Below are positions 1,379 through 2,821 of a stretch of 5,472 bases of DNA, piece by piece. How positions within the stretch are numbered: the first letter of the stretch is position 1; each line of letters opens with the position of its first letter. The stretch is from Escherichia coli (lineage in GTDB: Bacteria > Pseudomonadota > Gammaproteobacteria > Enterobacterales > Enterobacteriaceae), in NCBI RefSeq assembly GCF_003334315.1, contig NZ_QOWR01000094.1; one strand, written 5' to 3'. The notes under the pieces were generated by a model. The model did not search any database, was not told the DNA's origin, and worked only from the letters and a program-made list of their open reading frames with translations. The position numbers and the translations under genes are program-made.

Positions 1379-2821
1379 ATGAGTGAAGGACCAGGCGGGC
1401 CACAGGGAGCGACCGCAGGCGGTACGCTGGCAATGCGAATGCTGTCACAGCAGGCGATGGTCGCCAGCCAGATGAAACGGGCAGCCAACGACAAAGCCAT
1501 TGCACAGATGCTGGCAGCAAAGAAGTCCGGCCCACCTGCCGCCAGGCTGGGCGATGAAATTCAGCATAAAAGTTTTCTGGGGGCACTGGCAGGGGCCGTG
1601 CTGGGGGCGATAGTGACCATCGCAGAAGGTTGCCTGATTATGGCCGCCTGCGCCACCGGCCCTTATGCGCTGGTTCTGGTGCCTGCGCTGATGTATGCCA
1701 GCTATAAGGCGAGTGATTATGTGGAGGAGAAACAGAACCAGCTTGAATCATGGATAAACAGCTTTTGTGACACGGACGGCGCCATCAATACCGGTTCTGA
1801 AAATGTAAACATTAACGGAAAGCCCGCTGCAAGGGCCGCCGTCACCCTTCCCCCTCCTCCCCCACCTGGAGCAATACCTGAAATCCCACAGGGGGAACCC
1901 TCATGGGGTGATATTGCCACTGACCTGCTTGAATCGGCAGCGGAAAAAGCAGTACCACTGGCGAAGGCCTGGGGGAACGCTGTTATCACCCTGACGGAAA
2001 GCAATGCCGGTTTTATGGATCGCGTCAGCGCCGGCGCATCGCTTCTGTTTCCCGCCGGTCCGGTATTAATGGAGTTTGCCACCATGGTGGGCGGGCGTGG
2101 CGAAATCAAAAAAGATGTGGATTTCCCGGAAGCCGGTGAGGACACGGCGCTCTGCGACAAGGAGAACAAACCACCGAGGATAGCCCAGGGCAGTAGCAAC
2201 GTCTTTATCAACAATCAGCCTGCCGCGCGCAAGGGCGACAAACTGGAGTGCAGTGCGGCGATCGTGGAAGGTTCGCCGGACGTCTTTATTGGGGGTGAGC
2301 AGGTCACCTATCTGGATATCCAGCCGGAGTTCCCGCCATGGCAGAGAATGATCCTGGGAGGAATAACGATAGCCAGCTATCTTCTGCCGCCAGCAGGACT
2401 GCTGGGAAAACTGGGGAATCTGGCGAAACTGGGCAAACTGGGAAACCTGCTGGGGAAAAGCGGGAAGCTGCTGGGCGCAAAGCTCGGCGCGTTGCTGGGG
2501 AAAACAGGTAAGTCGTTAAAAAGTATTGCCAATAAAGTCATCAGATGGGTAACAGATCCTGTCGATCCGGTAACCGGCGCATACTGCGACGAACGTACCG
2601 ACTTCACCCTTGGCCAGACCCTCCCCCTCTCCTTCACCCGTTTCCACAGTTCTGTACTGCCACTGCATGGCCTGACGGGCGTGGGCTGGAGCGACTCCTG
2701 GAGCGAATACGCCTGGGTGCGTGAACAGGGAAACCGGGTGGATATCATCAGCCAGGGAGCCACGCTGAGATTTGCCTTCGACGGTGACAGTGATACGGCG
2801 GTTAACCCGTATCACGCCTAG
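1379..2821 (+). CDS. rhs: N-terminal segment of a prePAAR-TMD-PAAR Rhs T6SS effector; 480 codons ending at an in-frame TAG (2819-2821) that interrupts the rhs reading frame
   Basis: ATG at 1379 with GAGGGA 6 nt upstream. A prePAAR motif AARLGDEIQH (aa 54-63, nt 1538-1567) fits AARxxDxxxH. A hydrophobic Gly/Ala-rich segment (aa ~65-107, FLGALAGAVLGAIVTIAEGCLIMAACATGPYALVLVPALMYA) follows. PAAR motifs are INGKPAAR (PAAR at nt 1823-1834) and INNQPAARKGDKLECSAAIVEGSPDVFIGG (PAAR at nt 2219-2230). An Rhs-core-like start RWVTDPVDPVTG...LPLSFTRFHSS begins at ~nt 2543. The ORF ends at TAG 2819-2821, but the same frame continues open into the YD-repeat region. Confidence 0.9.
   Translation: MSEGPGGPQGATAGGTLAMRMLSQQAMVASQMKRAANDKAIAQMLAAKKSGPPAARLGDEIQHKSFLGALAGAVLGAIVTIAEGCLIMAACATGPYALVLVPALMYASYKASDYVEEKQNQLESWINSFCDTDGAINTGSENVNINGKPAARAAVTLPPPPPPGAIPEIPQGEPSWGDIATDLLESAAEKAVPLAKAWGNAVITLTESNAGFMDRVSAGASLLFPAGPVLMEFATMVGGRGEIKKDVDFPEAGEDTALCDKENKPPRIAQGSSNVFINNQPAARKGDKLECSAAIVEGSPDVFIGGEQVTYLDIQPEFPPWQRMILGGITIASYLLPPAGLLGKLGNLAKLGKLGNLLGKSGKLLGAKLGALLGKTGKSLKSIANKVIRWVTDPVDPVTGAYCDERTDFTLGQTLPLSFTRFHSSVLPLHGLTGVGWSDSWSEYAWVREQGNRVDIISQGATLRFAFDGDSDTAVNPYHA
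2402..2446 (+). repeat. Five tandem in-frame 9-bp units (consensus CTGGGNAAN) inside rhs, encoding (L-G-K/N)n; degenerate copies continue to ~2518
   Basis: Read directly: ctgggaaaa / ctggggaat / ctggcgaaa / ctgggcaaa / ctgggaaac at 2402-2446, followed by ctgctgggg aaaagcggg aagctgctg ggcgcaaag ctcggcgcg ttgctgggg aaaacaggt aagtcg. Protein: LLGKLGNLAKLGKLGNLLGKSGKLLGAKLGALLGKTGKSLK (aa 341-381). Confidence 0.85.

Follow-up and report, generated by a model that had tools for sequence, protein, structure and literature searches.

An amber codon as a probable second lesion in an Escherichia coli PAAR-Rhs gene already truncated at an ISAs1-family element

An in-frame amber codon interrupts a PAAR-Rhs gene of Escherichia coli, and our analysis suggested, with a probability of roughly 0.9, that this TAG belongs to a real, inherited allele and is a second hit in an rhs gene that was already dead, in the course of ordinary pseudogene decay. 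The window, by which we mean the whole stretch of DNA analysed (5472 bases), also contains a truncation of the same gene flush with the left end of an insertion sequence (IS). This truncation is a larger lesion than the TAG and had been missed by an earlier reading made from the sequence only; taking it into account removes most of the biological significance of the stop codon.

Results

The interrupted rhs gene and its neighbours

Direct reading of the window placed the TAG at 2819-2821, exactly as the sequence-only reading had described it. The ORF list gave two ORFs in the same frame on the + strand, 1379-2821 (480 aa) and 2909-4849 (646 aa), and straight translation across 1379-4849 revealed only one stop inside the frame, flanked by Rhs-like sequence (AVNPYHA, stop, YILRRRDDYLELFD). 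Only the TAG interrupts the frame, intact homologues are continuous at this point, and the remainder from 2822 to 4783 showed 98-99% identity to intact genes, up to 4777/4783; the earlier view that this is one gene and not two was thus borne out. The features of the window are as follows.

1-870, + strand: 3′ end of vgrG, type VI secretion spike protein, extending past the left edge of the window (RefSeq on the identical CP53 stretch; Phage_base_V, Gp5_trimer_C)
898-1359, + strand: eagR-type chaperone gene, DUF1795/DcrB family, 153 aa (PF08786 DcrB; RefSeq 'DcrB-related protein' WP_001160804.1)
1379-2821, + strand: first part of the PAAR-Rhs gene, an N-terminal remnant ORF of 480 aa closed by the amber codon
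1538-1567, + strand: prePAAR motif AARLGDEIQH, residues 54-63, ahead of a hydrophobic TM region (AARxxDxxxH pattern; PF25799 prePAAR_I at residues 54-100, E=1.4e-4)
1772-2308, + strand: PAAR domain in two pieces about 113 residues apart (PF05488 at residues 132-153, E=0.02, and 267-310, E=9.2e-10)
2555-2758, + strand: DUF6531, residues 393-460 (PF20148, E=2.4e-12)
2819-2821, + strand: amber codon TAG, with CAG (Gln481) as the ancestral codon and a C-to-T transition at 2819
2822-4783, + strand: untranslated rest of the Rhs frame, residues 482-1135, with RHS/YD cage repeats (same-frame translation; RHS_repeat matches)
4784-5472, + strand: left part of an ISAs1-family (ISEc1-like) insertion sequence, with the left inverted repeat CAGGGAAAGAT at 4784-4794 and the transposase ORF from 4928

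A 901-base query around the stop matched 2449 of the 5426 complete E. coli genomes searched. The gene order in three annotated examples was cusR, cusS, vgrG, 'DcrB-related protein', PAAR/Rhs, small ORF(s), ISAs1-family transposase, nfrB and nfrA, and, judged by sequence, the window is part of the known E. coli vgrG-eagR-PAAR-Rhs island between cusS and nfrB. RefSeq labels the CP53 stretch that is identical to positions 1-870 'type VI secretion system tip protein VgrG', and the chaperone of the window was equated with EagR z0706 of strain EDL933 through PMC7216683.

Pfam analysis of the called gene products assigned prePAAR_I, PAAR_motif, DUF6531, RHS_repeat and TEN_YD-shell to the Rhs gene and DDE_Tnp_1 to the transposase. 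The Rhs domain coordinates were computed on the CAG version of the product, in which the RHS repeats occupy residues 618-1101, past the amber codon. In RhsA of Pseudomonas protegens the region after PAAR is a plug that seals the cage (PMC8765631), and by analogy DUF6531 is presumably the N-terminal plug ('cork') domain of this Rhs protein. The TAG falls about 20 residues past this presumed plug and ahead of the cage. The prePAAR motif, TM region and PAAR domain with which the upstream ORF had been credited are indeed there, as is DUF6531 (Pfam and motif pattern). A Leu-Gly-Lys-rich repeat linker precedes the plug.

Truncation of rhs flush with the ISAs1-family element

Homology to intact rhs genes ends at 4777-4783 and ISAs1 homology begins at 4784. 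The junction between 4783 and 4784 reads CTGCTCCCC followed directly by CAGGGAAAGATCATC, and the GC content falls there from ~0.61 to ~0.31-0.44. With other IS copies elsewhere in E. coli, the shared sequence starts exactly at the 4784 junction point. The full element in CP53 (locus L001, 8385-9675) is 1291 bp long; it opens with CAGGGAAAGAT and closes with CAGGGCAAGAT in reverse complement, and its terminal inverted repeats match. These ends were located by sequence reading and a pattern search, the inverted-repeat finder having given no report of them. The transposase matches PF13808 and PF01609 and is labelled 'ISAs1 family transposase' in RefSeq, which places the element in this family.

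As a result of the fusion, the Rhs frame runs for 1135 residues, continues through 21 IS-derived codons and stops at 4847-4849, and RefSeq describes the rhs gene of CP53 as 'incomplete; missing C-terminus'. Intact homologues are 1613-1620 aa long, with DPLGL at positions 1444 and 1466 (TW10590 and PC-NDM34) and differing toxin domains thereafter. The truncation has removed the last ~480 residues, including the end of the cage, both DPLGL motifs and the toxin. A small ORF follows rhs in the intact loci (L002, 9881-10090; L003, 9833-10264), presumed from its position to be the immunity gene, and in the window the IS follows directly. In TW10590 the IS lies at the same distance from nfrB, and the truncated clade lacks the ~2.1 kb that there separate rhs codon 1135 from the IS end. 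The equal distance and the missing segment give the junction the signature of an IS-adjacent deletion, which would be the mechanism of the truncation.

Ancestral codon and order of the two lesions

All nine homologous loci compared at the nucleotide level (CP53, TW10590, PC-NDM34, ET979, 13C1065T, ET245, LR-17-1, RCAD0514 and ES6) read CAG at codon 481, with identical flanks. The single-base nonsense change that the sequence-only reading had proposed was confirmed as C to T at 2819; CAG, TAC and TGG had been offered as the original codon, of which the first was right and the other two were not. CP53 differs from the entire 5472-base window at only two sites, 2819 (C) and the synonymous site 3421, and base 2819 is the sole difference between RCAD0514 and the window in vgrG, eag and rhs. 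Given this near-identity and the CAG of the homologues, the lesion is, on these alignments, a C-to-T transition that turned Gln481 into an amber codon and left the haplotype otherwise as it was. In intact loci a 180-bp rhs fragment stands beside ISAs1, and gene conversion from it was rejected as the origin of the TAG; the fragment in TW10590, the only other copy of the segment examined, carries CAG, and the fragment is deleted in the truncated clade. A deamination hotspot at a Dcm site (CCWGG) was also rejected, the context of 2819 being CCAGT.

An 81-mer centred on the stop was then compared with the 5426 complete E. coli genomes; 2162 of them matched, none at 99% or more, and the TAG allele had no exact match. 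The Rhs-IS junction occurs in 39 complete genomes, none of which can carry the TAG, as this search gave no exact match. Contigs encoding the truncated product with CAG (1156 aa) number 122 and those encoding the TAG product 6-13, and every inspected TAG contig that reaches the junction carries the truncation. Because the TAG was seen only together with the truncation and the CAG form of the truncation is far more common, we infer that the truncation came first and that the amber codon arose later in a sub-lineage, an order that follows from nesting rather than from a dated phylogeny.

Other members of the truncated clade show further apparent signs of decay at this locus. RefSeq annotates frameshifts in the truncated rhs of ET979, 13C1065T and ET245 (1-bp homopolymer deletions, some of which could be long-read errors and not decay) and in the vgrG of the truncated locus in ET979 and RCAD0514. 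Elsewhere, other strains encode differently truncated N-terminal products of the same gene, 305, 379, 410 and 431 aa long with out-of-frame tails (P0018, P0019, P0025 and P0028).

Could the 480-aa product serve as a toxin-less cap?

The sequence-only reading had suggested that the upstream ORF could still cap VgrG as a toxin-less tip. If so, the nonsense mutation might be adaptive, converting an open-cage and possibly harmful stump into a 480-aa protein consisting of prePAAR, TM region, PAAR and plug, which would bind EagR and cap VgrG; we consider this improbable. The 480-aa ORF does keep all four of these parts, and the upstream vgrG and eagR are intact as far as the window reaches, which is what such a role would call for. 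The absence of the toxin was a feature of the parent allele and does not stem from the amber codon. The TAG allele is also a small minority of the truncated clade, and in two members of that clade the vgrG of this locus bears a frameshift annotation. In Enterobacter cloacae the PAAR domain can stabilise trimeric VgrG, and the same work, as far as it is summarised, disfavours a working cap, although it bears on the present locus by analogy only (Donato et al., 2020, summarised in PMC8651079). On that analogy, a working toxin-less cap made from the 480-aa product is unlikely.

The closest complete relative, CP53, possesses a T6SS-2 cluster with all core tss genes, which favours a use for such a cap. 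This cluster adjoins aspV and comprises tssA, B, C, E, F, G, H, J, K, L (annotated as icmH/DotU) and M together with hcp and vgrG, and its accessory gene tagH carries an IS3 insertion. On the other side, the cluster has a second vgrG-Rhs pair, so that an extra cap is apparently unneeded; judged from CP53, the strain may have a T6SS machine with another tip protein available. The Rhs protein inside the cluster begins with a PAAR-like GKPAARQGD motif. It was considered as a close paralogue of the 480-aa product and rejected, since only this short motif matches.

The substitutions private to the TAG lineage are the only hint that the amber codon itself was selected. Among the TAG loci inspected, the lineage has five private substitutions in rhs, all of them downstream of the stop and all nonsynonymous, and none in vgrG, eag or the 480-aa ORF. 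This pattern could reflect relaxed constraint downstream and residual constraint upstream. The count is five only, too few to carry the adaptive reading, and the downstream region is repeated in rhs paralogues and prone to assembly artefacts. Selection for the amber codon, whether for a compact 'PAAR-plus-plug' protein that would form a toxin-less spike cap with EagR and VgrG or for relief of T6SS jamming by a defective cage, therefore seems very doubtful to us, and loss by decay is the reading that we retain.

Sequencing error, read-through and separate genes

That the TAG might be a sequencing or assembly error in a strain that truly carries CAG had been left open by the sequence-only reading. 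Its absence from all 2162 complete genomes matching the 81-mer would fit such an error, as would the multi-copy, mis-assembly-prone nature of Rhs genes. Against this, the exact 480-aa product is present in a 15-billion-protein collection, and at least 13 contigs, which come from several independent projects, encode it. The ten places listed, six of them NCBI draft assemblies and four of them Logan run assemblies, correspond to about 31 samples, some Logan contigs being common to many runs and 17 samples sharing one contig that could represent one strain resequenced. The aligned position reads TAG in all ten loci inspected; four of them are 100% identical to the window, and some of the others carry a few private SNPs of their own. 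The C-to-T change lies outside any homopolymer and is not a typical systematic error, and the 180-bp TW10590 fragment, with its CAG, offers no source of TAG. Since the same allele appears in assemblies from several unrelated accessions, including unrelated SRA runs, a sequencing error is very unlikely, and the agreement among independent assemblies indicates that the TAG is a real, vertically inherited allele.

Amber suppressor alleles exist in E. coli, and it had been proposed that the UAG could be partially read through. The production of a full-length product, by a suppressor tRNA or by leaky termination, is in our judgement highly improbable. The tRNA scan of the 5472-base window found no tRNA gene, and the base after the stop is T (TAG T), which, as Poole, Brown and Tate (1995) reportedly found, favours efficient termination in E. 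coli. The stop is not conserved among homologues as in programmed recoding, being absent from the 2162 matching complete genomes, and CAG stands at this codon at 9/9 loci. Because the gene was already toxin-less, amber suppression would restore only the IS-truncated protein, which lacks the cage end, the DPLGL motifs and the toxin.

Finally, the notion of two separate genes or a programmed split gene, which has in its favour that gene callers output two proteins, is refuted by the alignments with intact homologues. In over 2000 E. coli genomes the region is continuous as one gene, and each copy inspected has a sense codon at this position; the downstream ORF has no ribosome-binding site and begins with internal Rhs sequence. 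A search for re-initiation sites found no Shine-Dalgarno-like motif before the in-frame starts downstream of the TAG, so the ORF 2909-4849 is unlikely to be translated.

Discussion

The results can be drawn together in the following course of events. Between cusS and nfrB, the ancestral locus would have had vgrG, then eagR for the DUF1795 chaperone, then a PAAR-Rhs effector gene of the class I prePAAR type, with an ISAs1-family element behind it. About 2.1 kb would then have been deleted in one clade of E. coli, flush with the left end of the IS. This deletion would have taken the last ~480 rhs codons, which specified the polymorphic toxin, the two DPLGL motifs and the closing part of the cage, as well as the small downstream gene, the presumed immunity gene. 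What was left over would be a 1135-codon toxin-less pseudogene fused to 21 IS-derived codons, probably without function. A spontaneous C-to-T change would later have turned codon 481 from CAG to TAG in a sub-lineage, so that translation would now end about 20 residues past the plug domain and leave 654 Rhs codons untranslated. Nothing in this course departs from known pseudogene decay.

The two ORFs are accordingly best annotated not as two proteins but as one pseudogene with two lesions, an internal stop and a C-terminus missing through an IS-adjacent deletion. The case is a clean, datable one of a T6SS effector locus decaying step by step in E. coli of commensal or animal-associated origin, and it may serve as a lineage marker. 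It also calls for caution, in that an ORF with a PAAR domain found in such a place need not mean that an effector is active there. Beyond correct annotation, the finding matters little.

The Rhs elements of E. coli K-12 carry H-repeat (ISAs1-family) sequences, and the present locus resembles them in that an ISAs1-family element directly adjoins rhs sequence and rhs fragments. Unlike in K-12, the IS end in the truncated clade is fused into the middle of the main rhs gene through the adjacent deletion.

In enterohaemorrhagic E. coli EDL933, vgrG1 (z0707), eagR (z0706) and rhsF form a vgrG-eagR-PAAR-Rhs island (PMC7216683) of a type that other E. coli have as well, and PAAR-Rhs effectors associated with T6SS-2 of E. 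coli are referred to there through a citation (Ma et al., 2017, Environ Microbiol, cited in PMC7216683). The window has the same order of vgrG, DUF1795/EagR chaperone and PAAR-Rhs, a likeness of gene order, and around the TAG its match to O157 genomes is ~94%. Unlike the EDL933 island, the window has an Rhs gene without its C-terminal third, toxin and presumed immunity gene, and with an internal amber codon.

With the class I prePAAR Rhs effectors, such as RhsA of P. protegens and Rhs1 of Salmonella (PMC8765631; PF25799), the window shares the AARxxDxxxH motif, TM region and PAAR domain, and it likewise encodes an Eag chaperone and VgrG upstream (PF08786 at 898-1359; VgrG at 1-870). The presumed plug (DUF6531) and RHS/YD cage repeats are encoded as well, but the repeats come after the TAG and the cage breaks off at residue 1135, out of about 1613-1620. 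Unlike in these effectors, the Pfam PAAR match is split in two, and the cage closure, the DPxGL core end (DPLGL) and the toxin, the downstream immunity gene and an uninterrupted frame are all missing. As far as its sequence tells, the Rhs gene of the window is a pseudogene derived from the class I prePAAR family and not a functional member of it.

The nearest experimental analogues of the 480-aa product are truncated RhsA variants of E. cloacae that keep PAAR and have no beta-cage (Donato et al., 2020, PNAS, as described in PMC8651079). Such engineered PAAR-only Rhs truncations would have a natural parallel in the 480-aa product if it acted as a toxin-less cap, a role against which the E. cloacae data argue. 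According to the same description, those variants were engineered and experimentally tested, whereas the allele in the window is a natural one, read as sequence, whose parent was already defective.

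Junction between rhs and the ISAs1-family element

The left inverted repeat of a 1291-bp ISAs1-family element was found to be joined directly to the Rhs reading frame, and the same junction was common to 39 complete genomes. About 2.1 kb of the intact loci is missing at this point, comprising the 3′ end of rhs, the toxin and a small downstream ORF, which is presumed to be the immunity gene. In the intact loci, the same ISAs1 left end is adjoined by an orphan rhs fragment. In TW10590, its first base corresponds to a site just 16 nt before the amber codon, where the fragment has CAG. 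It resembles a remnant of another rhs copy that was previously cut back by a deletion flush with the IS.

Window 4783|4784: junction of the Rhs frame with the ISAs1-family element, left inverted repeat CAGGGAAAGAT; the element runs on to 5472
TW10590 locus (L002) 10294-10473: orphan rhs fragment, 180 bp, homologous to window 2803-2982 (94% identical)

Substitutions and frameshifts in the IS-truncated clade

Comparison within the sub-lineage carrying the amber codon revealed five private rhs substitutions in three loci (L007, L011 and L013), each of them nonsynonymous and situated 3′ of the stop. In the members of this sub-lineage that were compared, vgrG, eag and the 480-aa ORF were free of private substitutions. 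The restriction of the substitutions to the downstream part could reflect relaxed constraint or paralogue-driven assembly noise. Elsewhere in the clade, 1-bp deletions inside rhs occur among ET979, 13C1065T, ET245 and RCAD0514, and vgrG is annotated by RefSeq as frameshifted in ET979 and RCAD0514; these frameshifts could represent either further decay or homopolymer errors of long-read sequencing.

Window 3164, 3257, 3449, 3554 and 3578: private substitutions E596K, W627R, P691S, G726C and A734T
Window 3510 (C run), 1579 (G run), 4745 (T run) and 4716: 1-bp rhs deletions in other clade members

PAAR domain and linker of the 480-aa ORF

The Pfam match to PAAR (window 1772-2308) is split into two pieces, residues 132-153 and 267-310, which are about 113 residues apart, and a PPPPPP run (window 1849-1867) falls within the intervening stretch. 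A linker encoded by a tandem repeat connects PAAR to the plug domain. O157 genomes cover 27 nt less across window 2400-3300.

Window 2402-2476: 9-nt / 21-nt tandem repeat, CTGGGGAAA-like, encoding the Leu-Gly-Lys-rich linker LGKLGNLAKLGKLGNLLGKSGKLLGAKLGALLGKTGKSL

T6SS-2 cluster of CP53

In CP53, the closest complete relative, which has CAG at the amber position, all core tss genes of the T6SS-2 cluster are present, and the FHA-domain accessory gene tagH carries an IS3 insertion and lacks its N-terminus. The vgrG-Rhs pair belonging to this cluster is flanked by IS1, IS5 and ISAs1 remnants.

CP53 chromosome 3,656,325-3,686,867 (L014/L015): T6SS-2 cluster, beside tRNA-Asp

Protein clustering and polymorphic toxins

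In the protein clustering at 90% identity, three NrfB/NfrB glycosyltransferase proteins (P0004, P0007 and P0008) were grouped with Rhs fragments in one cluster, which is probably an artefact of a chimeric or bridging gene call spanning neighbouring loci.

Among the intact loci, the toxin domain of the PC-NDM34 Rhs protein (residues ~1470-1613, following the second DPLGL) is wholly unlike the zincin-like one of TW10590; it contains HAEAH and CPNC, which, as judged by eye, would form a zinc-binding pattern resembling that of deaminases.
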